From a virus: a stretch of 64,000 nucleotides of DNA. The notes beneath the pieces were generated by a model. That model saw only the letters and a list, made by a program, of their open reading frames with translations, did no database searches and was not told the origin of the DNA. Positions within the stretch are counted from its first letter, which is position 1. Every line of letters begins with the position of its first letter. The stretch lies in the IMG/VR virus record IMGVR_UViG_3300029305_006397, one strand, 5' to 3'. This document shows positions 18,775 to 60,177 of the stretch, piece by piece. A program made the position numbers and the translations under genes.

Positions 18775-18849
18775 TGGCTGGGGTAGTTGGATTCGAACCA
18801 ACGATGTGGGAGTCAAAGTCCCATGCCTTAGCCGCTTGGCTATACCCCA
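18775..18849 (-). tRNA. tRNA-Gln(TTG)
   Basis: cloverleaf; anticodon loop CUUUGAC; GGTTCGAATCC T-arm; CCA encoded. Confidence 0.85.
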
Positions 18850-19234
18850 ACAGCAGAGAAGTTTAAACCTTGTGTTTTTTTAATGCGGAGCTAACGGGAC
18901 ATTGTTTCAGCTCAGGCATTTCTTCGTAACACATTACTCCTACTTCCAAAGGATGCACTTTAAGACCGTATGTCTTGCTGCTGCGCAGAGGTAGCATTTC
19001 CTCCGCTTGAACACTTTCGCAGTTCCCGGCACTAGACACTTTCGTAGTCTCCAACGCCATCGTTTGTATGCTCAATTTACTTTTACCCAGTAGCGAACTG
19101 GAGAAGGCTGAACCACCTGGCTATAAATACAACAATGGTCTAAGCGTTAGGCAGACGGTCAAGAATCTGCCCCACGGAATCGTACCGTGCCACCTGCGGT
19201 AAATAAGACGCAGGATCGAACCTCGCTTTTAGGA

Positions 19235-19576
19235 TTAATTTTGTATGGGTTTTGCAATTCTAAGTGCAATTGCAATACAGTAAATGCATGCCCATACATA
19301 ATCAATTATGCCTTTCAAGCTCTCAAAAAATGTAGGCTTACGTTCCATCATACGACTAAGCTCGATCAAACGAACACGACGTTCACGGTCGCGAGTTTCC
19401 TCTACAATATGATGGATATCTGTAAGGTCTCGAAGCTGACGATTAAATTTCAAATTAAGCTCTTCAATTTCATTTTGGTGCTCAATTCTGGATTTCTCCA
19501 TTTCATGAGCATGGATTTCGTTGAGACGCCTGGTTTCATTAATTACCAAATTGATATCGCTGAGAGTGAGATTCAT
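19235..19576 (-). CDS. hypothetical coiled-coil protein with C-terminal TM helix
   Basis: AGGAGG SD; sits inside tRNA island. Confidence 0.55.
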   Translation of the reverse strand: MNLTLSDINLVINETRRLNEIHAHEMEKSRIEHQNEIEELNLKFNRQLRDLTDIHHIVEETRDRERRVRLIELSRMMERKPTFFESLKGIIDYVWACIYCIAIALRIAKPIQN

Positions 19577-19620
19577 AGAAGCCTCCTATTGTTGTTCGTC
19601 GATATCTTTGAAAATAAAGA

Positions 19621-19697
19621 TGGTACTCCGGGAGGGACTTGAACCCCCGACTACAGACTTAGAAGGACTGTGCTCTTTCCAACTGAGCTACCGGAGC
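19621..19697 (-). tRNA. tRNA-Arg(TCT)
   Basis: 77 nt cloverleaf; anticodon loop CUUCUAA; CCA encoded. Confidence 0.85.
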
Positions 19698-19701
19698 ATA
19701 T

Positions 19702-19777
19702 TGGCAGGGAAGAAGAGATTCGAACTCTTATCTACATCGGTTTTGGAGACCGGAGTTTTGCATTAAACTACTTCCCT
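19702..19777 (-). tRNA. tRNA-Trp(CCA)
   Basis: 76 nt cloverleaf; anticodon loop CUCCAAA; CCA encoded. Confidence 0.8.
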
Positions 19778-19948
19778 ATTTATTATTATTGAGCCATAGG
19801 ACTTTCACCTATGGGAGCAAGGGTTAGGTTTCGTGTTTGCAACCACTTTCTAACGGTCTATTTCTAATTACTAATCTTGCCGACCAAGCATCTACAATTT
19901 TACCTTGCTTTTTCATATTTCGTACTTTTAAGAGATTTTCTTTTTGCT

Positions 19949-20036
19949 CGGCATCAACAGGACTTGAACCTGAACCCTCCGGCCAGCACTATCCAGCCAG
20001 CATGCTCTCCACCTACACCAGACACCTAATCCCTGC
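19949..20036 (-). other. tRNA-like element with aberrant anticodon arm
   Basis: acceptor GGTGTCT/TGATGCC, D-arm GTGT..GCAT, T-arm CAGGTTCAAGTCCTG; central hairpin has a 6- or 8-nt loop, no assignable anticodon. Confidence 0.35.
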
Positions 20037-20127
20037 CACACAAACCATCGGCTGTACCTTCCGTTATAGGCTTGTTTGTACGTTGTGGCATACTCCATAT
20101 GGCTTTGTACTCACCACTCAAAAATAA

Positions 20128-20391
20128 TCACGTTTGCTTTTTGCGAAGCGCCTGAACCTTGCGATTAAAAGCATGAATCTCGCTTTTTGTAAGGTTGGGC
20201 TTGATTTCTACGATTGAAAGATTCCATGAATAAAGGATGTCTTTGCTAGTGCCAGATAACTTGTTTGCATTGACTACAAAACGAGCCAATTGATCAAGCG
20301 TTTCAAACCTACGAACAAAAGCTCCGCGACAATGACGATTAAAAGATTTAAACTTCAATCCTGACCTTGCAAATGCAACTTCATAACGCAT
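20128..20391 (-). CDS. small basic protein inside tRNA island
   Basis: 87 aa, K/R rich; AAAGAGGT SD 5 nt before ATG. Confidence 0.4.
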   Translation of the reverse strand: MRYEVAFARSGLKFKSFNRHCRGAFVRRFETLDQLARFVVNANKLSGTSKDILYSWNLSIVEIKPNLTKSEIHAFNRKVQALRKKQT

Positions 20392-20672
20392 AAAGTACCT
20401 CTTTCATAACCGGGTTACGATCTACACGGTAGACGGCCTGTCCCCTACCCCTTTAGCCTTGGACTGTTTGGCTTCCCTCGTTGGTTGATGGTCGCGTCCA
20501 ACTCTTTCAACCTCTTTCACTGCCCCTCGAACGTATTACCAGTGCCAACACCCACTTAGCGTTAAGCAGAATTACATCGACGTTGTTGGCTGCGCGAATG
20601 ACTGCGCGTACATAAGCTTCATTAAATGGCCGTCTGCTGCGGCATCAACTTAAGAAAAGAAAGAAAGGAGTT

Positions 20673-20743
20673 TGCTTCGAGACGGAATCGAACCGCCGAC
20701 AAGAGCCATTCCAGCTTTTACTCTTCCCCTGAGTTACCGAAGC
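20673..20743 (-). tRNA. atypical tRNA, Phe(GAA)-like with G33
   Basis: good acceptor, D and T arms; anticodon loop UGGAAUG (G at position 33), A-C mismatch in stem; no CCA. Confidence 0.45.
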
Positions 20744-20746
20744 ATG

Positions 20747-20822
20747 TGGAGCTGGCGAAGGGACTTGAACCCGCAACCTGCTGATTACAAATCAGCTGCT
20801 CTGCCAATTGAGCTACGCCAGC
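20747..20822 (-). tRNA. tRNA-Thr(TGT)
   Basis: 76 nt cloverleaf; anticodon loop UUUGUAA; CCA encoded. Confidence 0.85.
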
Positions 20823-20831
20823 CCGATATAT

Positions 20832-20954
20832 TTACTGGGTTTCCAGTAAACGAATACGACGTTTGAGTTTATTGATAATGTTAACATTGACAACGGGATC
20901 GCGCATCTGCAGGATGTGCATGCGAATGGAGAGAGATTCGATAGAGTTTTTCAT
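20832..20954 (-). CDS. possible 40-aa protein between tRNAs
   Basis: own translation MKNSIESLSIRMHILQMRDP...; GAAAGAGGTAC SD as for 20128..20391. Confidence 0.3.
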   Translation of the reverse strand: MKNSIESLSIRMHILQMRDPVVNVNIINKLKRRIRLLETQ

Positions 20955-20984
20955 GGATTTGTACCTCTTTCATTGAATTTTAGA

Positions 20985-21061
20985 TGGAGCACCAGACGGG
21001 ACTCGAACCCGCAAACCTCCGGCTTGGAAGGCCAGCATTCTAACCATTGAACTACTGGTGC
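20985..21061 (-). tRNA. tRNA-Gly(TCC)
   Basis: 77 nt cloverleaf; anticodon loop CUUCCAA; CCA encoded. Confidence 0.85.
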
Positions 21062-21316
21062 ATATACCCTAATCTGTTATCGTACAGATTGGTAGAAACG
21101 CCGGATTTGCACCGGGACTCGCGAGTGTCTTTGGGCGCAGCCAGGGATCGAACCCGGAAATCAAGACTTGGCTTCCTGCATTTTGCCTCTTAAATTACTG
21201 AGCCATAAAACTCCCGGTGGGTTCTCAGGCCCACATTGCCCGTTTACCGAAGCAGTGACGGCAGTCCTTCAGGTGATAAGCTTAAAGTCACCCTTGCGAA
21301 TTTGTACGACAGGAGT

Positions 21317-21402
21317 TGGTGAATACAATTGGATTCGAACCAATGCTCGACGACTGAGCCAAAGGCATGGGCCGTCCGTGCTAACCGCTACACCATATAT
21401 TC
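21317..21402 (-). tRNA. atypical 86-nt tRNA-like gene, expanded anticodon arm, isotype unassigned
   Basis: acceptor GAATATA/TGTATTC, D-arm GTGTAGCGGTTAGCAC, T-arm ATTGGTTCGAATCCAAT, ACCA end; about 13 extra nt in the anticodon arm. Confidence 0.45.
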
Positions 21403-21550
21403 ATGCATCCGACTAAGCAGTAGTCGGCACTGTGAAACACGCCGCGTGACACCTCGTCTGCGTCTGCGTCTGCGATTTCAATCAGTGATATCGCCACTGA
21501 TCCTCCCCTTGTCATCGGGAAAACTATCTTGACCAAGCGATATTTGGGAC

Positions 21551-21627
21551 TGGTGGGGGCCACAGGACTCGAACCTGTGACCGATCGGTTATGAGCCGAC
21601 TGCTCTGACCAACTGCGCTAGACCCCC
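21551..21627 (-). tRNA. tRNA-Met or Ile2 (CAT)
   Basis: 77 nt cloverleaf; anticodon loop CUCAUAA; CCA encoded. Confidence 0.85.
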
Positions 21628-21878
21628 ATATGTAATGCCCCTGGTTGTATTAAATACATATGCATATGGATAGCTACGTCCCGCGAAGGAGTATTCGCGT
21701 GTATGCCTGACTTAAATCACGGACTCCAATTGTATTACTATGTGACGCATACTTTCGTTTTTATCCGCTATCTGGACGGGGCAGGTTAAGCGATAACCTA
21801 TGCCTTTCGACAACCCAGCCTCTAATAAGAGGCTGACGCTCATGGCCTAATGTCCTGTTTCAACTCGCCATGACGAGC

Positions 21879-21942
21879 AATCACCTGCAAGAATCGAACC
21901 TGCCTGGAAGTCAAGCTTCCTTTACTGCCGCCCAGAAGTGAT
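21879..21942 (-). other. truncated tRNA-like element lacking a D-arm
   Basis: acceptor ATCACTT/AGGTGAT, T-arm GCAGGTTCGATTCTTGC, hairpin GGAAG-CUUGA-CUUCC. Confidence 0.3.
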
Positions 21943-22006
21943 TAAGATGGATTGTTTGACTTTAATTTGATAAGCGGAGGCCAAACAACCAAATTTCTCT
22001 CACGAT

Positions 22007-22092
<86 letters not shown>

Positions 22093-22170
22093 AGATTGGT
22101 GGGCCTTAACGTCGGCCCAAACGACAGATGGGTTTATGCGCTGCGTAACCTCTTTTGCTCTTAACCGCGA

Positions 22171-22253
22171 TGGTGGGGATGGTGGGACTTGAACCCACAC
22201 GGTCTAGCCGTCGCATTTTGAGTGCGATGCGTCTGCCATTCCGCCACAACCCC
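22171..22253 (-). tRNA. tRNA-Leu(CAA)
   Basis: 83 nt type II tRNA; anticodon loop CUCAAAA; CCA encoded. Confidence 0.8.
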
Positions 22254-22366
22254 GCCTAGTATGGCATGCCGTTCGGCTTACGACGGCCATAACGCCGGAT
22301 TTAGGAAATCACCCAAGAAAGGAGGTGTACATATGAAACCGTATCTCACCCGGAATCAGATGTAAG

Positions 22367-22442
22367 TGGTGAAAGTGGCGGGATTCGAACCCGCGACTCA
22401 CAGATTAAAAGTCTGTTACTCTACCGACTGAGTTACACTTCC
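22367..22442 (-). tRNA. tRNA-Lys(TTT)
   Basis: 76 nt cloverleaf; anticodon loop CUUUUAA; CCA encoded. Confidence 0.85.
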
Positions 22443-44441: not shown

Positions 44442-44831
44442 CTATTCCAGTTCATTCACAAGCTCAACGAGTGCGCCGTAGGTATTTTCACACACCATGC
44501 CGCACATGTAGTTATGGATTTCAGTAATCCACTGGTATACAAATTCGTCATCATCATCTTCATACTGGCAATCTTCAAACCAATGCTTCTTAGTAAAGGT
44601 TCTGAATTTTTCCATGTTCCGGGTAATGAGGTCAGCCCACTTACATACAGCAGTGACATCAGAAGCATCGAATTTTTCCACTTCGACCTTCTTGATGATC
44701 TCCATGCAGAACCTATCGTAGTTCTCCTTGAAGGGTTCGGGGATGTAGCAGACGGTTACTTCGGCATCGTACACGGTATCGTAGGTATCAAAATCGTCCT
44801 GGGAAATTGCCACGAGTTCATACAAAGTCAT
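44442..44831 (-). CDS. hypothetical protein
   Basis: start moved to MTLYELV (ATG 44831) preceded by the conserved leader AAAGATAGGAGGAA. Confidence 0.55.
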   Translation of the reverse strand: MTLYELVAISQDDFDTYDTVYDAEVTVCYIPEPFKENYDRFCMEIIKKVEVEKFDASDVTAVCKWADLITRNMEKFRTFTKKHWFEDCQYEDDDDEFVYQWITEIHNYMCGMVCENTYGALVELVNELE

Positions 44832-45076
44832 AAGATTCTTCCTCCTATCTTTTGATAACGGATTCATGGGAGCGTTAGCGATACACCTTTATAACCGGAT
44901 GGGCAAGGCCGCTATTCTGTGATTCTTAATCTACTCTTCAGGTTAAACCCTTATGTTACCATCGGTTCCCAATCATTTAAGGCCATCCCAGGTCTTGATT
45001 CGCCTCCGTCTATCTTTCAGCGCACCCACTACTTTAGATATGTGGTGTGTAGCTTTAACCAGCCGAAGCTGGCCTA

Positions 45077-45361
45077 TCAGCGTTTGCGCTCATAAGGTTC
45101 GTACCCTTCCATGTCCCATTTTCCATCGAACAACTCTCCGTTAAGCCATCCTTCGGAGTCGAAGTAGTTGACGCGCAGCCAACCATTTTCCTGATAGGTT
45201 TTGACAATAATTTCGTCCGGGCGGACACTCATTGTAACCAACTCTCCGTTTTCATTGTGGCCGATAAAATCAGAGTCAGAGTCACCATACTCTGCCATAA
45301 TCTGTTTGCGAACCTCGACTTCGCCAAATCGTGCGGACAGTTCATTGGGAATGCTTTTCAT
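45077..45361 (-). CDS. hypothetical protein
   Basis: start at MKSIPNE (ATG 45361) with GGAGG SD. Confidence 0.55.
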   Translation of the reverse strand: MKSIPNELSARFGEVEVRKQIMAEYGDSDSDFIGHNENGELVTMSVRPDEIIVKTYQENGWLRVNYFDSEGWLNGELFDGKWDMEGYEPYERKR

Positions 45362-45647
45362 AAGAACCTCCTTGTTTTTCCATCTCGGCAATCATTGCAG
45401 CTTTCATCATGCTTTTAGCCGTTTCGTTAATAACGCTTAAGACACGATCTCCATACAAGTAATAGTAGTCAAACCGATCAAAGCTCTTATGGTATTCGCC
45501 CATCGGTTCGACAAGCTCTCCATCCTTGTTTTTTATTGTGCCGAAGCTGCATAGGAACCGATTGTCATTTATCCAATAGCCGACCAAACTTCCATCAAAC
45601 GCCCTCCCATCTGCGCTGGTTACGAGTGCGCCAGCGTACAAATTCAC
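45342..45647 (-). CDS. hypothetical protein (GTG start in track, uncertain)
   Basis: tiled minus-strand ORF. Confidence 0.45.
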   Translation of the reverse strand: MNLYAGALVTSADGRAFDGSLVGYWINDNRFLCSFGTIKNKDGELVEPMGEYHKSFDRFDYYYLYGDRVLSVINETAKSMMKAAMIAEMEKQGGSYEKHSQ

Positions 45648-45759
45648 GGTGACGCTTGATTCTGTTATAGTGTTTAACGACCTTTTTCCATCCGTACATT
45701 ACCGCCTCGGAAATTCCAACGGCAATGCTCAGGCTTCCCATGAGGACGATAATGCTCAT
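45595..45759 (-). CDS. possible 54-aa membrane micro-protein
   Basis: own translation MSIIVLMGSLSIAVGISEAVMYGW...; AGGAGG SD; overlaps next ORF. Confidence 0.3.
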   Translation of the reverse strand: MSIIVLMGSLSIAVGISEAVMYGWKKVVKHYNRIKRHREFVRWRTRNQRRWEGV

Positions 45760-45774
45760 TTGATTTACCTCCTG

Positions 45775-46014
45775 TTATTCTTCTTCGTACCTCTCTGCCA
45801 ATTCATCGGCAGCGCAAGCATATACATCATCGGCATCTCTTGCCCAAAGTTCATGATTGATAGCATACAAGAGTTCCTTGCACAGATCGACAAGCTCAGA
45901 CTTGCTCAGTTCATGCCCATAATTTGCAAGTGCATCAAACAGGCAATCCGGGCAATCTCTCAGACCTTCAATAATGCTCTGCATCGTCAGGGTCTTAGAA
46001 TTTTCCATCTGCAT
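45775..46014 (-). CDS. hypothetical protein
   Basis: start at ATG 46014 with GGAAGG SD. Confidence 0.5.
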   Translation of the reverse strand: MQMENSKTLTMQSIIEGLRDCPDCLFDALANYGHELSKSELVDLCKELLYAINHELWARDADDVYACAADELAERYEEE

Positions 46015-46063
46015 ACCTTCCTTCTTTTCTTTTAGCATATCGGATACTTTGGATTTTCCGATG

Positions 46064-46098
46064 TAGCATTAAAGAATCAGGAGAGGCTTTCGCCTCTC
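46064..46098 (-). terminator. possible intrinsic terminator
   Basis: GGAGAGGC-GAAA-GCCUCUCC hairpin then UGAUUCUUUAAU on minus strand. Confidence 0.4.
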
Positions 46099-46124
46099 CC
46101 TATCTCCCATCTGCGTTTATGCTG

Positions 46125-46460
46125 TTAGTCACCGCCGACTGCGCCAACCACCAAACAATCGTATTCTTCCGGCAGGTCATAGTCCCAATCAAGCTGGGCT
46201 TCAACGTACAAAACCTTTTCAACGTACAGGATTTCGCCAAACTGACAGAGGAAATCTTTGGCCTGTTCTTCATACCGGGCATCACAGGTTACAAATACGC
46301 TGTTCGTTCCGGCAAGATTTTCCAGCTTAAAAAGCTCCTCATTGTCGCGCACGTTATTGAAGATCGCAAGGAAATCTCTTGCATACTTGTTCAGGTCTGC
46401 GCTCAGTTCGACCTTAATCTGCACGGCATCCTTCTTCTCCGTATAAAACTTCATCTTCAT
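46125..46460 (-). CDS. hypothetical protein
   Basis: start at ATG 46460 by analogy with the conserved leader. Confidence 0.55.
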   Translation of the reverse strand: MKMKFYTEKKDAVQIKVELSADLNKYARDFLAIFNNVRDNEELFKLENLAGTNSVFVTCDARYEEQAKDFLCQFGEILYVEKVLYVEAQLDWDYDLPEEYDCLVVGAVGGD

Positions 46461-46498
46461 GTGATTTTCCATCCTTTCTTTTCTTGCAGGTGTGGCTT

Positions 46499-46588
46499 CC
46501 TACGACACAAGCGGAAGGAAAGATAGGAAGGAAGAAAACCTTCCGCTTGTCATTTCGGCTGGTTGCCGTCCAGCTCTCGTCAGGTAGG
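46499..46588 (-). ncRNA. hammerhead ribozyme, type I (HH-5)
   Basis: minus strand CCUAC-CUGACGA-G..stem II..C-GAAA-12-bp stem III-GUC/GUAGG; predicted cleavage between 46504 and 46503; UGA stop of 46580..46786 lies inside the CUGACGA core. Confidence 0.8.
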
Positions 46589-46786
46589 TGTGGTTAATTT
46601 GAATGATTTGGTAGTCAATGCTGCCAGCTTTTGTTCGCAAGCGGTGTAGCTACCTCTATAAATGGTTTTCCAGTTATAACGGCATCTGCCGCCAACAGTG
46701 TAGAATCGTCTTTCTTTGAGTTCCCATACAGGCTTCAGGTCAAAGCCAATCGTTTCAGAAATTACATATCTTGCTTTGTTAGCCAT
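46580..46786 (-). CDS. hypothetical protein
   Basis: GGAGGCAAC SD; last codons and stop overlap HH-5. Confidence 0.55.
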   Translation of the reverse strand: MANKARYVISETIGFDLKPVWELKERRFYTVGGRCRYNWKTIYRGSYTACEQKLAALTTKSFKLTTPT

Positions 46787-46794
46787 GTTGCCTC

Positions 46795-46986
46795 CTACTT
46801 AATCGCAATGCGTTTAGAATTGTTCTCCAAGACAGCTTCAATTTTCCGTTTGACATGCAGCATGTTTTCTTTTACATGATTTGCAAGGGCTTCCATACCC
46901 TCTGTAGGATTTTCCATGCTATCTGCTTCATGCTGCAATGCGTTCATAATCCATCTAAGCTCGTTATGAGTTAAGGTCTGCATCAT
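46795..46986 (-). CDS. hypothetical protein (63 aa)
   Basis: start moved to MMQTLTHNEL (ATG 46986); longer track ORF reads through HH-4. Confidence 0.5.
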   Translation of the reverse strand: MMQTLTHNELRWIMNALQHEADSMENPTEGMEALANHVKENMLHVKRKIEAVLENNSKRIAIK

Positions 46987-47022
46987 TTGTAGACACCCTC
47001 TTTCTTTTCTATATGGTGATTT

Positions 47023-47089
47023 TCCACGACACAGCCGGAATTTTCCGACTATGTTTCGACCGGGCATCACCCGGTTCTCGTCAGGTGGA
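47023..47089 (-). ncRNA. hammerhead ribozyme, type I (HH-4)
   Basis: UCCAC-CUGACGA-G(A)ACCGGG-UGAUG-CCCGGUC-GAAA-CAUAGUCGG-AAAAUU-CCGGCUGUGUC/GUGGA; predicted cleavage between 47028 and 47027. Confidence 0.85.
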
Positions 47090-47092
47090 TTG

Positions 47093-47254
47093 TTACTTGA
47101 GTTCCCATTTTTCCATCCACGGCTCTCCTTGCCGATCATACTTATCTGCGTACATTCGATCAAGGGCTTCCTGCGCTTTCTTTTCCGATGAATAGATTTC
47201 TCTGATTCCTTCGTCACCATAGCAGCCGGACATGATAACGTAAACGTACTTCAT
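47093..47254 (-). CDS. 53-aa protein
   Basis: own translation MKYVYVIMSGCYGDEGIREIYSSEKKAQ...; GGAGGT SD; stop directly abuts HH-4. Confidence 0.45.
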   Translation of the reverse strand: MKYVYVIMSGCYGDEGIREIYSSEKKAQEALDRMYADKYDRQGEPWMEKWELK

Positions 47255-47263
47255 ACATACCTC

Positions 47264-47479
47264 CTAACCATCATTCCATGCGTAATCGTACCAGAGGGAA
47301 ATCACATCGTTTTCCGGCTCAAAAGGCGTATCATCAAACGACAGGGCATTCAGACCTTCATCCTTAAGCCGCTGCATTGCCATCGTTTCCAGCTCCTCGT
47401 TGGATTTTCCGACTGCATCTTCGTCGTCAATGTATACCTTATAGAAACGCTTTACCTCAGCCATGATAGCTACTGCCAT
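47264..47479 (-). CDS. hypothetical acidic protein
   Basis: conserved leader GGAAAGATAGGAGGAAAC upstream. Confidence 0.55.
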   Translation of the reverse strand: MAVAIMAEVKRFYKVYIDDEDAVGKSNEELETMAMQRLKDEGLNALSFDDTPFEPENDVISLWYDYAWNDG

Positions 47480-47575
47480 AAGTGTTTCCTCCTATCTTTC
47501 CTTATGCGTTTGGCTTTAGGGGCTTGTGACCTTATGCCTTGCCGCATTAACAGGGCTTATGCCCTGCCACTCTGC

Positions 47576-47761
47576 TTAATCTCGATTGGAAAGCTCCGTG
47601 TGATAGATATGCACACTCTGAAGGCGTCTGCTTCCAAATTTCCGTCGAAATTCCTCTTTCGCATCTTTCATGTTTGCCTTGCTACCGTTTCGATGATCGC
47701 TTACATACTCAAATTCTCCGTAATCGTGACCATCATCATAAAGCGCAATGTAGTTTTTCAT
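47576..47761 (-). CDS. hypothetical protein
   Basis: tiled minus-strand ORF, no motif. Confidence 0.55.
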   Translation of the reverse strand: MKNYIALYDDGHDYGEFEYVSDHRNGSKANMKDAKEEFRRKFGSRRLQSVHIYHTELSNRD

Positions 47762-47772
47762 GCCGCCTCCTG

Positions 47773-47970
47773 TTAATCCATAGTGTAGTCATTGATTCTA
47801 CAAAATTCCGACCAGTCTCCGCCAAGTCGCCGGATAAGCTCCCTTTCGATCTTGACGCGCTCTTGCGGATAACGCTTGTTCTTCGGGTAGAGGATTTCCT
47901 GCGCAACAATGATTCCATAGGTGCTTACCAAATCTTCATGCGAATAATCCATGTACTTGTTTTTCCGCAT
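47773..47970 (-). CDS. hypothetical protein
   Basis: tiled minus-strand ORF, no motif. Confidence 0.55.
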   Translation of the reverse strand: MRKNKYMDYSHEDLVSTYGIIVAQEILYPKNKRYPQERVKIERELIRRLGGDWSEFCRINDYTMD

Positions 47971-47973
47971 GGT

Positions 47974-48219
47974 TTAACCCTCCATCATGCAGCCCATTTC
48001 AAGCTGTACACGGTGATTGAAATCTTCCATCGCAGCCTTAAGGTCATTCAGGAAGTAATGACCGTGACAATAGGATTTTCCGTTCATACAAAACCATGTA
48101 ATCCACATGATTCCCTGACTTGTTTCAGTTTTTGCCAGAACAACTTCGCCCTCAATGACAGGCTCCGCATGGATAATCTCACAATTTTCCGAGTAGTTTT
48201 TGTTGTAGCGCCTTTCCAT
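47974..48219 (-). CDS. hypothetical protein
   Basis: conserved leader GGAAAAGATAGGAGGAAAC upstream. Confidence 0.55.
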   Translation of the reverse strand: MERRYNKNYSENCEIIHAEPVIEGEVVLAKTETSQGIMWITWFCMNGKSYCHGHYFLNDLKAAMEDFNHRVQLEMGCMMEG

Positions 48220-48274
48220 GTATGTTTCCTCCTATCTTTTCCTTATGGTTTCCATGGATATTTCCATGGGGTTT

Positions 48275-48342
48275 CCCACGACGCTCTCAGGATTTTCCAT
48301 CAAGCGTTTCGGTTGCTAACCGGGCAGCCATCATCAGGTGGG
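48275..48342 (-). ncRNA. hammerhead ribozyme, type I (HH-3)
   Basis: CCCAC-CUGAUGA-U-stem II-GAAA-CGCU..AGCGUC/GUGGG; predicted cleavage between 48280 and 48279; stem II pairing less regular. Confidence 0.7.
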
Positions 48343-48343
48343 G

Positions 48344-48547
48344 TTAAAAAACGAATCCGGCATAAACCATCTTGTTTCCGTCCAGCATCCTCCATGCGTT
48401 AGCATCGTCCCATGCCGTACAACAGTAACGTTTTTCCGACCTGTCATATTCGCCGCGGATATAGACCCGATTTGCAGACTCTTTCAACTTGAAAAATTCT
48501 CCATGCTTCAGGTCTTTCAGCTTGTACATTCCTGCATCTCTTTCCAT
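48344..48547 (-). CDS. hypothetical protein
   Basis: stop TAA abuts HH-3 stem I. Confidence 0.55.
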   Translation of the reverse strand: MERDAGMYKLKDLKHGEFFKLKESANRVYIRGEYDRSEKRYCCTAWDDANAWRMLDGNKMVYAGFVF

Positions 48548-48548
48548 G

Positions 48549-48743
48549 TTAGGCTCCCTTCTTAATCCGCTTTACTTCGATATGATCGTAGCCTTTATCC
48601 GGGTGAAGAAAATTCCGAATACCATAGCTTCGTGCTTCCTGCTCATTAGTTGCTTCGATCTTGTGATATTCCAAGGCCATGCCAGATTTTCCGACACCAA
48701 TTCGATAGAGATATTTCCTTGCCATTGTGCTTCCTCCGTTCAT
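48549..48743 (-). CDS. hypothetical protein
   Basis: ATGA overlap with upstream micro-ORF. Confidence 0.55.
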   Translation of the reverse strand: MNGGSTMARKYLYRIGVGKSGMALEYHKIEATNEQEARSYGIRNFLHPDKGYDHIEVKRIKKGA

Positions 48744-48913
48744 TTACCGATTGCCTCGGCGTAGTATTCGTCGAAATTTCCGAAAACTTCCAGATACACC
48801 ATGCCACCATTGCCCCGATAAGGCCGGATATTTTTCATGATGAATCGATATTCCGTGAACATCAATGCAAGCACACAAAGGGCAATACATGCTCCAATCG
48901 CCAGCTTTTTCAT
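48740..48913 (-). CDS. 57-aa membrane micro-protein
   Basis: own translation MKKLAIGACIALCVLALMFTEYRF...; conserved leader upstream. Confidence 0.45.
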   Translation of the reverse strand: MKKLAIGACIALCVLALMFTEYRFIMKNIRPYRGNGGMVYLEVFGNFDEYYAEAIGK

Positions 48914-48949
48914 GATTTTCCTCCTATCTTTTCCATGTGGTTTTGACTT

Positions 48950-49015
48950 CCCACGACAGGCCAGCTCAAGGCCAGCCTGTTTCGGCTCGTTGTCAACTCG
49001 CCATCGTCAGGTGGG
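48950..49015 (-). ncRNA. hammerhead ribozyme, type I (HH-2)
   Basis: CCCAC-CUGACGA-U-GGC(GA)GUU-GAC-AAC(GA)GCC-GAAA-CAGGCUGGCC..GGCCUGUC/GUGGG; predicted cleavage between 48955 and 48954. Confidence 0.75.
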
Positions 49016-49020
49016 TATGC

Positions 49021-49482
49021 TTACCATTCCTCCAATTCTTCCTCCAGATCGGCGATTTCTTCCTCCAGATCATCGGCATCCGACTGGTAATTGCTTCTCC
49101 AGATTGCCATTCTCAGGCTTTCGATTTCTTCCTCGTCCAGCTCATTCATTCCGGCAAGCTCACGATTGGAATTGATTTCGTCGATTTGTTCCTCGACTTC
49201 TTCTTCGTAACTTTCCTTGAGTTCTTCCAGCTCGTACTGTTTTTCTTCCAGTTCGGCGCGGATAACTTTCTCGGAACGGATTCCAACCCATTCATACACG
49301 GATTCCGGCTCAAACCAAAGCAGATCATTTAGACCAGTTTCGGTCATTCCATCCGGGTACAAATCCTCCAGAACAGCCTCCAGCTGCGCACATTTTCCGG
49401 CGTTGCGTACACGATCAAGGGTATCGACAGCTCCAGACCATGCCTCGAAAGTTTCCAAATCAAGCTCGTATGTGATTTTCAT
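49021..49482 (-). CDS. hypothetical highly acidic protein
   Basis: C-terminal half very E/D rich; stop 5 nt before HH-2 stem I. Confidence 0.6.
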   Translation of the reverse strand: MKITYELDLETFEAWSGAVDTLDRVRNAGKCAQLEAVLEDLYPDGMTETGLNDLLWFEPESVYEWVGIRSEKVIRAELEEKQYELEELKESYEEEVEEQIDEINSNRELAGMNELDEEEIESLRMAIWRSNYQSDADDLEEEIADLEEELEEW

Positions 49483-49589
49483 TGTAAAATTCCCCTTCCT
49501 ATCTTTCCAAATGATTGACAGGAAGGGGCAAACTATGATATATTTCTGTATAGGAAGGGCGGAAGGAAATTCCCTCCACCCCCATGCGG

Positions 49590-49673
49590 TTAGATTTCGT
49601 CCGGGTTATCCGTGGCGCGAATAATCCCATCAGACCACATCCAGCCGTATTTAGTCCGATACAGGGCTTTCAT
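49590..49673 (-). CDS. possible 27-aa micro-protein
   Basis: own translation MKALYRTKYGWMWSDGIIRATDNPDEI; leader AAAGATAGGAAGGAGG upstream. Confidence 0.3.
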   Translation of the reverse strand: MKALYRTKYGWMWSDGIIRATDNPDEI

Positions 49674-49699
49674 GGCGGTTGTCCTCCTTCCTATCTTTT

Positions 49700-49734
49700 T
49701 ATAAAAAGCGGTCTTGTGTTGGTAGCACAAGGCC
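49700..49734 (-). terminator. possible intrinsic terminator or attenuator
   Basis: GGCCUUGUG-CUACCAA-CACAAGACC then GCUUUUUAU on minus strand. Confidence 0.4.
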
Positions 49735-49958
49735 GTTTTTATCTTTTAAAGCCGTTTTTTCTACGATACGGCAAAACGCTTGACCCATGCTATATGGGAA
49801 TGAATCGGGGTTCAAGGGATTGCCCCGGTCGCCTCCAGCCGTGTTCTTACATGCCGCTGGACACAGGTAGCCTGCATAATCATCTCATTCTCCGGCTACA
49901 GAGTTTTGCGCGGTTTCGATAGACGCACATTTATTGGCGGTTGCTATCGGGAATGGTT

Positions 49959-50020
49959 AACCCAGACCAGCCCATGTGGGCGTGGTTTCGTCGCAATTTT
50001 CAGCGACTCGTCAGTGGGTT
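49959..50020 (-). ncRNA. hammerhead ribozyme, type I (HH-1)
   Basis: AACCCA-CUGACGA-GUCGC-UGAAAAUU-GCGAC-GAAA-CCA(C)GCCC-ACAU-GGGCUGGUC/UGGGUU; predicted cleavage between 49965 and 49964; overlaps stop of 50011..50208. Confidence 0.85.
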
Positions 50021-50208
50021 TCAGGGTATTCCATTGCTATGGCTCTGACGGCTTCAATATCCGTCAACATTCCTCTTTCATATACGCGCAAAATATTTTC
50101 TATGCGTGTTTTTCTTAATTCTTTGATAGACGTTAACATTAACGTATTTTCTGCATCTGTCTGAAGCATATCTTGCGCAAACTCATGCACATAGCGTTTT
50201 CTTCTCAT
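50011..50208 (-). CDS. hypothetical protein
   Basis: last codons and UGA lie in HH-1 stem I and core. Confidence 0.55.
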   Translation of the reverse strand: MRRKRYVHEFAQDMLQTDAENTLMLTSIKELRKTRIENILRVYERGMLTDIEAVRAIAMEYPETH

Positions 50209-50230
50209 GTTTATACCTTCCCTTCTCTTT

Positions 50231-50298
50231 CCATACCCACGCCCCGGCAGGGCGTGACGCTCACGGCTTAAATGGCTTTTTATAGTCGCCGTGACGAC
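50231..50298 (-). ncRNA. pistol ribozyme (P-2)
   Basis: GUCG-UCACGGC-GAC-UAUAAAAAG-CCAU-UUAA-GCCGUGA-GCG-UCACGCCC-UGCCG-GGGCGUGG-GU-AUGG; loop/GCCGUGA pseudoknot and CCAU/AUGG helix; predicted G/U cleavage between 50236 and 50235. Confidence 0.75.
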
Positions 50299-50610
50299 TC
50301 AGACAATTATGCAGCGTTTGAACGGATTTTCGCAGGGGTCGCAACCGAAACCGAAATTTTCTCCGTATATATCGATATACTGAAGTCCAGCGAATTTGCC
50401 GTTCTGAATGGTTTTTAACTCCATTGTAGCGCGGCGCATAGCCTGTTTTGCCTGTTTAATGGTTACGTCGTCGATATTGTAGAATCTGTTTAGCTTGTTT
50501 TGAATTTTATTCAAGAAATTCATTGCAAGGTCATTTGTAACATTCTTTTTATCGGACTCCATGAAACAGTCAAACCCGTATGCACGAAGATAAAAACCCT
50601 GTTTTTTCAT
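50299..50610 (-). CDS. hypothetical protein
   Basis: stop abuts pistol P-2. Confidence 0.55.
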   Translation of the reverse strand: MKKQGFYLRAYGFDCFMESDKKNVTNDLAMNFLNKIQNKLNRFYNIDDVTIKQAKQAMRRATMELKTIQNGKFAGLQYIDIYGENFGFGCDPCENPFKRCIIV

Positions 50611-50633
50611 TGTATAACCCTCCCTATCTATTT

Positions 50634-50698
50634 TTGAACCCGCCCCAAACGGGGCGACGCTTTGGGCCTAATCAACTATTTAAAGTCGCCCAAACGAC
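50634..50698 (-). ncRNA. pistol ribozyme (P-1)
   Basis: GUCG-UUUGGGC-GAC-UUUAAAUAG-UUGA-UUAG-GCCCAAA-GCG-UCGCCCC-GUUU-GGGGCGG-GU-UCAA, near-identical in layout to the published pistol consensus; predicted G/U cleavage between 50639 and 50638. Confidence 0.85.
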
Positions 50699-50955
50699 TA
50701 AACGCGCATTACATTGTCAAGATAAATGCGCATTGCACCCTTACGAATATATGCCCGACCTGCCGTCGAATAGTGGACTTTATGACGATGAAAACCCACA
50801 TATCCTTCAGGGTTAACCCATGCCGCAATATAATCGCATTCGAATTTATCGCCGTCGTCGGGTTCCCAAAGTGCAACGCCGAAACAGTTGGAAAAATGGC
50901 AAACGCCAACCGGGGCAATATTAGAATAACGCTTGTAAAGTGCTACATTTTTCAT
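50698..50955 (-). CDS. hypothetical protein
   Basis: stop codon G is the first nt of pistol P-1. Confidence 0.55.
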   Translation of the reverse strand: MKNVALYKRYSNIAPVGVCHFSNCFGVALWEPDDGDKFECDYIAAWVNPEGYVGFHRHKVHYSTAGRAYIRKGAMRIYLDNVMRV

Positions 50956-50989
50956 TGTGTTTTACCTTCCCTCTTTTTTTTAGGTTATT

Positions 50990-51044
50990 CACCCGACGCC
51001 CGGCAGGGCGTTTCGTCTTAATTTTCAAAGACTCTTCAGGGGCG
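50990..51044 (-). ncRNA. hammerhead ribozyme, type I (HH-6)
   Basis: CGCCC-CUGAAGA-GUCUU-UGAAAAUU-AAGAC-GAAA-CGCCC-UGCC-GGGCGUC/GGGUG; predicted cleavage between 50995 and 50994. Confidence 0.9.
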
Positions 51045-51047
51045 TTA

Positions 51048-51368
51048 TTATCTCAAGTTGTCGTTATATGCAATATCCCTGTTTTTGATTGCAATTTCGA
51101 TTCGCTTTTTGCTAACGTCGCCGCCGAAAATGTGACGGGCGTATTCGCGCAAAAACTCATAGAGATATTTTGCGGTTGTATTGGAGTAACACCAATTCCG
51201 ACCCAAAGTCAACGCCGCCGCGCCCTGCGCGTCATAATCAACGATTGCAATAACGCTGTCATAAGACTGGAAAATAACAGCATTATTGGAGTGAATGATA
51301 AACTGGTTTGCAACGGGGCGACCACTTCGGGGGGATACCATGTTCCTAACACTTGCATATTTCATCAT
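51048..51368 (-). CDS. hypothetical protein (first gene of the ribozyme-punctuated operon)
   Basis: GGAAGGTG SD; conserved motif copy 27 nt upstream. Confidence 0.6.
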   Translation of the reverse strand: MMKYASVRNMVSPRSGRPVANQFIIHSNNAVIFQSYDSVIAIVDYDAQGAAALTLGRNWCYSNTTAKYLYEFLREYARHIFGGDVSKKRIEIAIKNRDIAYNDNLR

Positions 51369-58222: not shown

Positions 58223-58300
58223 ATGGAAGTAGTTTAAGGCAAAACAGCTGAAGGTACAAAACAAAAACGGAAGTTGAGGGTGCAAATCCCTCCTTCCATC
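58223..58300 (+). other. tRNA-like element without anticodon arm (T-loop UGCAAAU)
   Basis: acceptor ATGGAAG/CTTCCAT, D-like hairpin GTTT-AAGGC-AAAC, A-rich linker, T-arm GAGGG-TGCAAAT-CCCTC. Confidence 0.35.
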
Positions 58301-58305
58301 CGTAT

Positions 58306-58383
58306 TGCGGAGTGGAGAAGCGGACTATCTCGCCAGCCTCATAAGCTGGAGATCGCTGGTTCGAATCCAGCCTCTCGCAACCA
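58306..58383 (+). tRNA. tRNA-Met(CAT), irregular acceptor stem
   Basis: D, anticodon (CUCAUAA) and T arms align with bacterial tRNA-fMet layout; ACCA end; one extra nt or mismatch in acceptor. Confidence 0.7.
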
Positions 58384-58386
58384 CAT

Positions 58387-58461
58387 GTGGAGTTCGTATA
58401 ATGGTTAGTACCTGAGATTTTCAATCTCAAAACAGGGGTTCAACTCCCCTACTCCTCACCA
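58387..58461 (+). tRNA. tRNA-Glu(TTC)
   Basis: 75 nt cloverleaf; anticodon loop UUUUCAA; CCA encoded. Confidence 0.8.
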
Positions 58462-58630
58462 GTTAGTTTTTTGCTGTAATGATCTTCGGACTTATGGCTT
58501 AAATCGCATGCTTCGGATTCCTTCGGGGCCGAGGCTTTATTTTGAAAAATTGTTCGCTAGTCAGTATGCGACTAATAAAATACTGATCAGAAACTACCAT
58601 CTGATTTCTTTTAAATCAGGTGGTTTATAT

Positions 58631-58707
58631 CAGGGTGTATATCAGTTTGGTAGATGGCCGCATTTGGGATGCGGAGGCCGCTGGTTCGAATCCAGTCACC
58701 TTGACCA
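58631..58707 (+). tRNA. tRNA-Pro(TGG)
   Basis: 77 nt cloverleaf; C1-G72; anticodon loop UUUGGGA; CCA encoded. Confidence 0.85.
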
Positions 58708-58748
58708 TGATCGTACTCAAGAATGCTACGGCGCTTGGGTCTATTTAT

Positions 58749-58776
58749 AGGGTGGCGATGCCACCCTTTTATTTTT
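58749..58776 (+). terminator. intrinsic terminator inside tRNA island
   Basis: AGGGTGGC-GAT-GCCACCCT followed by TTTTATTTTT. Confidence 0.65.
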
Positions 58777-58780
58777 ACAT

Positions 58781-58870
58781 GCTGATATGGCCGAGTCTGG
58801 CTTAAGGCGGTGGTCTTGAAAACCATTGGAGGTAACACTCACGGAGGTTCGAATCCTTCTATCAGCGCCA
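58781..58870 (+). tRNA. tRNA-Ser(TGA)
   Basis: 90 nt type II; anticodon loop CUUGAAA; CCA encoded. Confidence 0.85.
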
Positions 58871-59023
58871 GTATTAGCTCTCCTGCATAAAAATGTGCTA
58901 TTGATGACAGAAACAGGAGATAAGAGTCCCGCAAGTAGACACGCGGTTCAGTGCTCGTACAGGTGTTTTGTTGAGCAAGCAGTCTATTAAGAATAAACAC
59001 TGACAGCAGGAAAGACTGCATAT

Positions 59024-59115
59024 GGAGAGGTGGCTGAGTGGCTGAAAGCGGCACCCTGCTAAGATGTTTGCCCTGGTGACAGGGCACGAGAGTTCGAATC
59101 TCTCCCTCTTCGCCA
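59024..59115 (+). tRNA. tRNA-Ser(GCT)
   Basis: 92 nt type II; anticodon loop CUGCUAA; long variable arm; CCA encoded. Confidence 0.8.
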
Positions 59116-59286
59116 AACAAATGTGGTTCCGGTAGAGCCTGACGCATCAGTACCGACCTTGATGGAAAGGGTATCCCGTAGCTAAGACGAGTCCATAGGC
59201 GGGGATTTCTGCCACGTTGATTTAGCTCATCTGCCAAGTGCAGAAGGAGTTCCTGGATGTGTTACACAACTAGCGCATCCTGATTT

Positions 59287-59361
59287 GGTTCTATAGTTTA
59301 GGGGCTAGAATGCCAGCCTGTCACGCTGGAGACACGGGTTCGATTCCCGTTAGAGCCGCCA
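59287..59361 (+). tRNA. tRNA-Asp(GTC)
   Basis: 75 nt cloverleaf; anticodon loop CUGUCAC; CCA encoded. Confidence 0.85.
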
Positions 59362-59420
59362 ATTTGCCTCACACGCCTCTTTGTCGTATGACAAATGCGG
59401 ACTAAGTGAGGTTTTTTCAT

Positions 59421-59496
59421 GGGGTTATAGCTCAGTTGGAAGAGCGCGTGCTTTGCAAGCATGAGGTCAAGGGTTCGAGACCCTTTAGCTCCACCA
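59421..59496 (+). tRNA. tRNA-Ala(TGC)
   Basis: 76 nt cloverleaf; G3-U70; anticodon loop UUUGCAA; CCA encoded. Confidence 0.85.
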
Positions 59497-59498
59497 AT

Positions 59499-59570
59499 CG
59501 CCGGGTGGTGTAAATGTTAGCACCGCAGACTATGATTCTGCGAATAAAGGTTTAAATCCTTTTCCGGCGA
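59499..59570 (+). tRNA. atypical tRNA with anticodon ATG (formally His), no CCA
   Basis: acceptor CGCCGGG/TCCGGCG, D-arm GTGT..GCAC, anticodon arm GCAGA-CUAUGAU-UCUGC, T-arm AAAGG-TTTAAAT-CCTTT. Confidence 0.5.
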
Positions 59571-59903
59571 TTATGTTATCTATTTCCCAACATACTGTCA
59601 TGCGTGGGTGGAATAAGAAGAGACGGGCGTTTTCGGTCGGCATAAACCGAAGTTTGGCATTTGAGGTCAAATGAGTTTGATGAATGCAATCCCGTGCTGC
59701 TATGCGGTATTTGCAGGAGAACAACAGGGGTTTGCGTATAACCACAAGGCAGCTAGGTACAATCCGAAAGAAAAACGGTTATAAAGGGCGTCCCGCCACC
59801 TATATCCCAAGTGTGGAACGATAAAGCAGGTGTTTCGCTGCCTATAAATGCGAAATTTAATCAGCTCCGTGTTGGATATTTTGACATGCGGAGCATTTTA
59901 TAT

Positions 59904-59979
59904 GGCATCATAGCTCAGTCGGTAGAGCAGCTGGCTGTTAACCAGCAGGTCAAGAGTTCGAGCCTCTTCGGTGCCTCCA
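59904..59979 (+). tRNA. tRNA-Asn(GTT)
   Basis: 76 nt cloverleaf; anticodon loop CUGUUAA; CCA encoded. Confidence 0.85.
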
Positions 59980-60100
59980 CGGGTAGATAAGATAACAAAA
60001 CGCGCCACTACCCCAAGGCAGATACATACGCATTCGAGAAGCGCAATGGCTGCGATCAAATTGGCAGATGTGTAGGCGGCAGACTTAACTGTCTTTATTT

Positions 60101-60177
60101 GCTGTCATAGCTACAATTGGCAGAGCGACGGATTTGTAATCCGTAGGTTCAGAGTTCGAGTCTCTGTGGCAGCTCCA
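60101..60177 (+). tRNA. tRNA-Thr(TGT), second copy
   Basis: 77 nt cloverleaf; anticodon loop UUUGUAA; CCA encoded. Confidence 0.85.

Follow-up and report, generated by a model that had tools for sequence, protein, structure and literature searches.

A divergent twister-type ribozyme candidate and a probable gene-cassette remnant in one gap of a ribozyme-dense phage operon

Introduction

Twister ribozymes are recognized by a set of defining features laid down in a published model (PMC5408937; PMC6154101), and the twister-sister class (RF02681) has a similar scaffold with a P4-loop sequence that resembles that of twister (PMC6154101; PMC5408937). The idea that ribozymes of bacteria and phages process polycistronic mRNAs is long-standing and unproven (PMC6765202). 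Here, we analyze a 64,000-nt stretch of viral DNA, the IMG/VR virus record IMGVR_UViG_3300029305_006397 (referred to as the window), and within it the 245-nt gap at positions 44832–45076, which lies between the coding sequences 45077–45361 and 44442–44831. The gap is read on the minus strand, which carries all genes from about 36 to 52 kb.

A first-pass annotation made from the letters alone had described this gap as free of open reading frames (ORFs) and as too long and too paired for a simple spacer, and had proposed that it may be a degenerate hammerhead ribozyme plus something else, or an unrecognized RNA. We consider it likely that the gap contains two unrelated things, a twister-type ribozyme and a non-functional block of 165 nt. 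The RNA at 45090–45019 is probably a divergent type-P5 twister ribozyme candidate, and its cleavage is predicted. The annotation found a real RNA but named the wrong part of the gap and the wrong class; for its original finding the outcome is deflationary.

Results and Discussion

Architecture of the candidate ribozyme

The comparative set for this work was derived from 155 homologues of the 129-aa protein encoded downstream of the gap (identity 47–91%) and comprises 9 viral and 43 metagenomic loci, carrying L numbers in the following, plus several contigs of closer relatives. No close DNA relatives were found in INPHARED. A motif in the first 70–90 nt of the gap recurs just ahead of the homologous gene in L015, L029 and L030, in further elements of L044 and in a second gap of the window (46015–46124). 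In the target, the motif is made up of the following parts.

45019–45090, minus strand: twister-like ribozyme candidate in type-P5 layout, 72 nt, starting within the last codons of the upstream coding sequence
45086–45090, minus strand: 5' strand of P5, AGCGC, pairing with GCGCU at 45023–45019; all five pairs (helix 1) covary, n = 59
45074–45081, minus strand: 3'-side strand of P2, GCU (45081–45079), then the L1 strand GAUAG (45078–45074)
45058–45073, minus strand: closed P1 hairpin, GCCAGC-UUCG-GCUGGU; all six pairs (helix 4) covary
45055–45057, minus strand: UAA loop directly 3' of P1, with predicted cleavage U45057/A45056
45049–45054, minus strand: 5'-side strand of P2, AGC (45054–45052), and T2 strand UAC (45051–45049); the three P2 pairs all covary
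45024–45048, minus strand: P4 hairpin, ACACCAC/GUGGGU, with the 12-nt loop L4, AUAUCUAAAGUA (45041–45030); all six pairs (helix 6) covary

GAUAG and UAA are the two strands of the internal loop L1, which is flanked by P5 and P2. G45078 is the guanine directly after P2, and UAG (45076–45074) is one strand of the pseudoknot T1, which forms with CUA of L4 (45037–45035). A second, putative loop contact, T2, would join GUA of L4 (45032–45030) to the UAC strand after P2, and the AA in L4 is conserved. The stop codon of the upstream gene (UGA, 45079–45077) lies within the candidate. The UUCG-capped hairpin noticed in the first-pass annotation is present at 45073–45058 and the GCGCA/UGCGC helix around it has its arms at 45089–45085 and 45024–45020; these are P1 and P5 of a conserved, covarying ribozyme-type fold.

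Recurrence and covariation

The fold was written, as a three-way junction with two loop–loop contacts, onto a plain, unfitted MAFFT alignment of 19 hand-trimmed copies (alignment A2). In this alignment, 98.1% of the cells are paired, compared with 29–41% in slid controls, and 19 of the 26 pairs change on both sides. GAU and UAA of L1 are invariant, the latter aligning to the UAA of the Rfam Twister-P5 consensus. A custom covariance model (R1), which covers the nested part only and leaves the T1 pseudoknot outside, scores the target at 45019–45090 on the minus strand with 77.8 bits (E about 4e-15) and a second copy in the window, at 46034–46123, with 72.1 bits. Further candidates were collected with a degenerate DNA pattern from IMG/VR and GTDB genome contigs and then screened with R1. 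The resulting family has at least 59 copies with E < 1e-5 from relatives, IMG/VR contigs and contigs of gut or rumen metagenome-assembled genomes (MAGs), the latter labelled Lachnospiraceae, Ruminococcus, Clostridia, and yak caecum and faecal.

Among the 59 sequences of the resulting alignment (A4), 97.8% of the cells are paired and 22 of 26 pairs covary. All four helices take part, with paired cells amounting to 97.7% in P1, 98.3% in P2, 97.5% in P4 and 98.3% in P5. The G after P2 is kept in 58 of the 59 sequences (L088 has A). The T1 pseudoknot, which lay outside the model used for the screen, is paired in 59/59 sequences, two of its three pairs covary, and it occurs in the versions UGG/CCA, UAG/CUA (16 sequences including the target) and UGA/UCA (9 sequences). 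The suggestion of an unrecognized RNA is therefore borne out for the 5' part of the gap, which holds a conserved, covarying RNA that matches no Rfam model.

Across the family, stop codon, ribozyme, leader and start codon follow one another in a compact order. The stop codon of the upstream ORF lies inside the 5' arm of the ribozyme in 41/59 copies, and in 55/58 the ribozyme's 3' end is followed by the next start codon at a distance of 14–41 nt. Two loci binned into Bacteroidota MAGs, L175 (labelled Paludibacteraceae) and L153 (labelled Prevotella), carry several twister-like copies typical of Bacillota-type phage operons, and these may be mis-binned phage contigs.

Folding calculations for the target give a matching division of the gap. 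The 5' 88 nt fold better than shuffled sequences (z = −2.87; 1 of 200 shuffles as good), whereas neither the whole gap (z = +0.31, with no excess stability on either strand) nor its 3' 171 nt (z = +0.85) shows excess structure. The impression that the gap is too paired for a spacer thus stands for the 5' part and not for the gap as a whole or its 3' part. A search of the coding strand for a terminator or promoter in the gap was negative; downstream of the P1 hairpin comes UAAAGC and no U-tract.

Comparison with known twister classes

Like Twister-P5 (RF02684, clan CL00120), the target has the stems P1, P2 and P4 and a closing P5. The two strands of its internal loop L1 read UAA and G-A-N-G-G as in this class, P2 is likewise followed at once by a guanine, and L4 has the shared form U-C-N-N-A-A-G-Y, which pairs with L1 in T1 and may pair with the strand after P2 in T2. 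As described for twisters, it sits between phage genes in the neighborhood of hammerheads and pistols (PMC5408937; PMC6154101; PMC6765202). A direct link to the curated model is provided by one member of the family, L028:1108–1172, which aligns to Rfam Twister-P5 with 29.7 bits (E 0.003; gathering score 37.6) in the register GCUGAUGG[P1]UAAAGC against GCAGAGgG[P1]UAAUGC of the Rfam consensus. In addition, positions 10–47 of R1 align locally to the Rfam-annotated twister of the window at 47544–47575; apart from this local match to the P2-L1-P1 module, R1 misses the canonical twister of the same window.

Several points weigh against the assignment. The target itself does not match Rfam Twister-P5 at E up to 10 in searches of 401-nt and 91-nt stretches, and of about 16 family copies scanned, just one gave a sub-threshold match. 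Compared with the consensus, L1 of the subfamily reads GAU(G/A)G and not GAGgG, the linker between the T2 strand and P4 has about 1 nt where the consensus has several, and L4 comprises 12 nt instead of about 10. Finally, T2 is without covariation support, since its columns are invariant; its AC/GU can pair in 59/59 sequences and its third pair in 50/59. Two further differences are a T2 of UAC/GUA instead of GC/GC and a longer P4 of 5–7 bp. That the Rfam model fails on the 3' half of these RNAs is explained by the nearly missing linker before P4 and by the longer L4. The differences in T1 and T2 from the Rfam consensus are pair swaps, the U of GAU in L1 providing an extra U-A pair in T1, and the unpaired core positions are kept. 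Since the target is without any Rfam match, we file it as a divergent twister variant and not as a threshold-passing member of the class.

The position of cleavage, between U45057 and A45056, is inferred from the family and from twister biochemistry (PMC5408937). Twister-sister has no pseudoknot and cuts the opposite strand, whereas the target family has a covarying T1 in 59/59 sequences and conserves the UAA strand. A twister-sister identity is therefore ruled out by the covarying T1, and no match to RF02681 was obtained at E up to 10.

An alternative that we regard as unlikely is that the 5' motif is a twister-derived scaffold which no longer cleaves and serves instead as a recognition site for a protein or an RNase or as an mRNA-stabilizing structure. 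The score below the Rfam threshold would agree with a loss of activity, as would the G-to-U exchange in L1 and the altered linker and loop lengths. However, the catalytic positions, that is UAA, the G after P2, the A following it and the AA in L4, are kept, with the G of L088 as the exception (1/59), the differences in T1 and T2 are compensatory, and the motif sits in the slot that in neighboring gaps belongs to proven ribozyme classes. A divergent twister, predicted to cleave, remains our preferred reading of the 5' part.

The novelty of this RNA is modest: it is a variant subfamily of a known ribozyme class and new relative to the curated Rfam model alone. A literature search for this twister variant, or for phage operons with one ribozyme per gap, returned general reviews only. 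Nevertheless, a twister-type subfamily with at least 59 copies in a small sample of gut and rumen phages and MAGs is missed by the curated model, five of the six hammerheads of the window likewise have no Rfam match (see below), and it follows that the density of ribozymes in such phages is underestimated.

The 165-nt block between ribozyme and gene

In the target, the distance from the 3' end of the ribozyme to the next start codon is 187 nt, the largest among 58 family copies (median 25.5 nt), so that the gap is indeed unusually long, as the first-pass annotation had stated. The additional length is due to a block between two leader copies, and the features of this part of the gap are as follows.

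45010–45018, minus strand: first leader copy, GAAAGAUAG, which in relatives runs straight into GAGG...AUG (alignment with L067 and L068)
44845–45009, minus strand: 165-nt block between direct repeats of AAAGAUAG, with the CUGAAGAG box and the GGAUGG/CCAUCC pairing inside
44929–44981, minus strand: probably left over from an upstream gene, now lost, of which it would be the 3' end (block nt 23–75; local alignment to L034 and L039)
44853–44928, minus strand: orphan non-coding stretch of about 76 nt, with no significant similarity to gene starts, hammerhead gaps or other gaps tested
44832–44852, minus strand: working leader with Shine–Dalgarno sequence, AAAGAUAGGAGGAAGAAUCUU, adjoining the AUG at 44831; L067 and L068 have the identical leader

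Compact gaps in which both flanking genes are kept occur in L067 (80 nt; downstream protein 91% identical) and L068 (79 nt; 72%), as opposed to 245 nt in the target. In L222 (61%), the ribozyme also stands directly before the gene in compact form and without the block. The compact form in these three loci consists of the ribozyme, a spacer of about 20 nt and the AUG. L067 reads ...GUGCGCUGAAAGAUAG immediately followed by GAGGAAGAAUUUUAUG, and it is at this junction that the window carries 165 extra nt, which end in a second AAAGAUAG. The breakpoint between the block and the relatives falls inside the AAAGAUAG repeat.

Two parts of the block have a probable origin. Its 5' end reads GGAGGCGAAUCAAGAC, to be compared with GGAGGAAGAAUCUUAUGAC of the working leader, and the AUG is changed to AAG; as read from this comparison, it is a decayed leader and start codon. 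Block nt 23–75 align locally with the last 54 nt before the homologous gene in L034, with a score of 22 against 8.8 ± 1.3 for shuffled sequences (0/2000 as high), and also with L039 (score 15; 1/2000 shuffles as high). In this alignment, AACCUGAAGAG lies over the codons GAA CUG GAG GA(U UAA), which encode ...ELED* and contain an overlapping Shine–Dalgarno sequence. The block is thus probably, on sequence grounds, what is left of a decayed gene cassette formerly located between the ribozyme and the 129-aa gene. Recombination could plausibly have acted on the repeated leader and so removed, or not removed, the cassette, and the compact form of L067, L068 and L222 fits cassette loss or non-acquisition by recombination between leader repeats. 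Read in this way, the block illustrates how repeated leaders may drive the gain and loss of gene cassettes.

Points that count against a remnant concern its explained extent, its stability and its direction of change. A relative is detectable for no more than about 53 nt of the block, and the last ~76 nt are unexplained. The block is identical in 9/9 independently assembled contigs of the same strain that span the gap and is therefore stably carried; these contigs, identified by exact flanking proteins, are 100% identical across the gap and provide no comparative information. The event may have been a deletion in the relatives or an insertion in the target. Searches for further copies were negative: no matches to the block were obtained in INPHARED, in IMG/VR (one exact 21-mer, 0 matches) or in 1.5 Mb of fetched loci, no block-like sequence was present in the further relatives L221–L224, and a translated search of the block against related loci returned nothing. 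Tblastn with the upstream protein of L034 and L039 did not pick up the block; the nucleotide alignment alone does. An origin of the block's last 85 nt from the start of the 129-aa gene or from other gaps was rejected, as the similarity is not significant. A sigma-70-type promoter was not found on the minus strand in 44853–44928.

It is very unlikely, in our view, that the 165-nt block is a functional non-coding RNA of another kind, be it a new ribozyme, a small RNA or a regulator in the 5' untranslated region (5' UTR) of the 129-aa gene. The block is ORF-free, unchanged in the nine same-strain contigs, located in an operon where most gaps hold ribozymes, and contains about 76 nt without explained origin. 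Against this, it folds no better than shuffled sequences (z = +0.85), is missing in the three closest relatives with the same gene pair, has no homologue in INPHARED, IMG/VR (the single exact 21-mer) or the 1.5 Mb of related loci, matches no Rfam model, and resembles decayed leader and coding sequence at its 5' end and in its middle. For the ~76 nt at 44928–44853 taken by themselves, a new functional RNA is a more novel but less likely reading than the twister offshoot discussed below.

We give an equally slim chance to the block being a small mobile insertion of the MITE (miniature inverted-repeat transposable element) type that duplicated an 8-bp target, AAAGATAG. An exact 8-nt direct repeat flanks the block, and its ends form an imperfect inverted repeat (GAUAGACGGA with UCCGUUAUC). 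However, the flanking repeat is the ubiquitous gene leader, the leader similarity runs on into the block up to the mutated start codon, no second copy exists in the window or in 1.5 Mb of relatives, and part of the block matches the neighboring gene of relatives. We retain a cassette remnant as the probable origin of the block.

The hammerhead-like box

Both GGAUGG and CCAUCC and the hammerhead-like box (CUGAAGAG; CUGAAGA at 44941–44935, minus strand) are present in the block as the first-pass annotation had indicated. The box was a reasonable lead because the same box, CCUGAAGAGU, serves the genuine hammerhead at 51044–50990, which belongs to this operon and is 6 kb distant; in this respect the target resembles type I hammerheads and RAGATH-1 (RF00163, RF03152). 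Moreover, a bulged hairpin, GAAU and a UAGCG/CGCUA helix can be drawn after the box. A lone CUGANGA box is uninformative, however, because the window contains 40 of them where 32.5 are expected, and by our own estimate several 6-bp complements are to be expected by chance within 245 nt.

The remaining elements of a hammerhead are lacking. No GAAA occurs from the CUGAAGAG box down to the start codon, and the best relaxed model at the box has a stem I of 0 bp, GAAU, a U-A at 15.1–16.1 in place of the A15.1-U16.1 pair and an extra base before G12. Strict and relaxed hammerhead descriptors, with type I scanned by script and type II checked by hand, were both rejected for the box, whereas the descriptor recovers five complete hammerheads elsewhere in the window. 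The cmsearch that the annotation had recommended produced no match to a hammerhead model in the gap at E up to 10. We also rejected an origin of the block by decay of the local CUGAAGAG hammerhead, as the similarity of the block to the gap of this hammerhead is not significant (score 11 compared with 8.5 ± 1.5; 46/500 shuffles as high). The box is absent from L067, L068 and L222, together with the whole block, and it aligns to coding sequence in L034 and L039, so that it probably belongs to the coding relic and not to a ribozyme core. A degenerate or unusual hammerhead at the CUGAAGAG box, possibly active and accompanied by some other RNA, is therefore hardly tenable, and the hammerhead-like box is chance or relic sequence inside a dispensable insert. 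Conservation in related phages and a stable fold had been proposed as the test; the part with the box has neither (z = +0.85), and the claim made for it is refuted, while the 5' part has both.

Operon context and proposed role

The gap belongs to a ribozyme-dense operon, 45019–51064 on the minus strand, that consists of small genes without Pfam hits. Most of its intergenic gaps contain a self-cleaving ribozyme followed by the same leader, AAAGAUAGGAGG.

51044–50990, 50020–49959, 49015–48950, 48342–48275 and 47089–47023, minus strand: hammerheads found by descriptor
46588–46499, minus strand: sixth hammerhead, with bulged stems
50634–50699 and 50231–50299, minus strand: pistols (Rfam)
47517–47576, minus strand: twister-P5 (Rfam)
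45019–45090 and 46034–46123, minus strand: twister-like copies (R1)

Five of the six hammerheads have no Rfam match even at E up to 5, and the sixth matches weakly. The leader, which the first-pass annotation had called conserved, lies at 44852–44841 in the target gap, is present in the window in four exact copies and three copies with one mismatch (0.31 expected), and in its exact form follows four ribozymes of the operon.

Starting from the fold, the covariation and the genomic placement that are observed here, we infer cleavage and a biological role as follows. The RNA would cut itself between U45057 and A45056 during transcription. Two mRNAs would result: that of the 94-aa gene would terminate in the P1 hairpin and carry a 2',3'-cyclic phosphate, and that of the 129-aa gene would begin with a 5'-OH, the P4 hairpin and the standard leader. 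Since most gaps hold a hammerhead, pistol or twister together with the same leader, the ribozymes of the operon most likely divide a polycistronic early transcript into pieces whose 5' ends are uniform. The proposal agrees with the still unproven role in processing such transcripts that has been suggested for these ribozymes (PMC6765202).

In synthetic ribozyme insulators of the RiboJ kind, a ribozyme that cuts itself immediately precedes a standard ribosome-binding region, and each gene thereby acquires an identical 5' UTR regardless of the sequence further upstream. The operon is similar in that each of its diverse ribozymes is followed by the same AAAGAUAGGAGG leader. In contrast to RiboJ-type insulators, its elements are natural, their insulator function is a presumed one, and in the target the 129-aa gene has a 5' UTR extended by the block to about 225 nt. 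A speculative extension, to which we attach a small probability, is that the GAU...UAAAGCUAC...AUAUCYAAAGUA RNAs are a distinct twister offshoot. Their junction is rearranged, with no L2 linker, a 12-nt L4 and U for G in L1, and with such a geometry the cleavage rate, the cofactor needs or even the cleavage site could differ. They may, along with the hammerheads and pistols, be natural insulators through which all early phage genes obtain one common 5' UTR. With a self-cleaving RNA from one of three classes in almost every gap and a single leader, the operon is a good natural test of the mRNA-processing idea (PMC6765202).

In relatives, the equivalent slots of the same gene neighborhood contain other ribozymes, among them a hammerhead, a pistol, a canonical twister-P5 and a probable type-P1 or type-P3 twister. 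They occur at L028:212–295 and 672–739, L030:827–889, L223:~1960–2040 and L224:~20–120, and L033:~2900–2960 contains an unassigned element rich in hairpins. From one equivalent gap to another, it appears that ribozyme classes are freely exchanged.

For three further minus-strand gaps of the same operon, 45504–45594 (91 nt), 49483–49589 (107 nt) and 49731–49958 (about 228 nt), no ribozyme could be assigned. The first is 99% identical in L067, the last weakly similar to L175 and L181, and all three are candidates for unrecognized RNAs.

Flanking genes and further observations

The gap at 44832–45076 is real and has no ORF of its own on the coding strand, as had been claimed. The sole coding-strand ORF that touches it results from an in-frame upstream ATG of the downstream gene at 44867, which homologues do not use. 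No relevant Rfam matches were found in the gap, neither at gathering thresholds on the whole window nor at E up to 10 on the 401-nt and 91-nt stretches. The flanking genes are the following.

45077–45361, minus strand: upstream coding sequence, 94 aa, no Pfam hit; the ribozyme's 5' arm is made up of the last 11 nt of this gene and its stop codon; also called in L067 and L068
44442–44831, minus strand: downstream coding sequence, 129 aa, no Pfam hit, 155 homologues

In eight loci (L024, L025, L027, L031, L032, L035, L036 and L038), the homologue of the 129-aa gene is preceded by a sigma-70 consensus promoter, TTGACA-17-TATAAT, with no ribozyme in the ~300 nt upstream. In most of these, three or four spaced, operator-like palindromes of the type ATTTTTAAAAAT lie upstream of the promoter. 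Five more distant loci (L045, L047, L048, L050 and L063) share, instead of a ribozyme, a short conserved leader, AGCUGACCUAUCRGC...ACGGGGAGAAUGGAG, within the 35 nt before the start codon.

At gathering thresholds, Rfam recognizes in the whole window three pistols, a type-P5 twister, a RAGATH-36 RNA, a drum RNA and about 22 tRNAs. The tRNAs form two arrays, at 18775–22442 on the minus strand and at 58223–60177 on the plus strand, and among them lie the third pistol (21809–21878), the RAGATH-36 RNA (19031–19192) and the drum RNA (59675–59782). ARAGORN in addition reports an odd tRNA at 21317–21402 with a two-base 'ca' anticodon.

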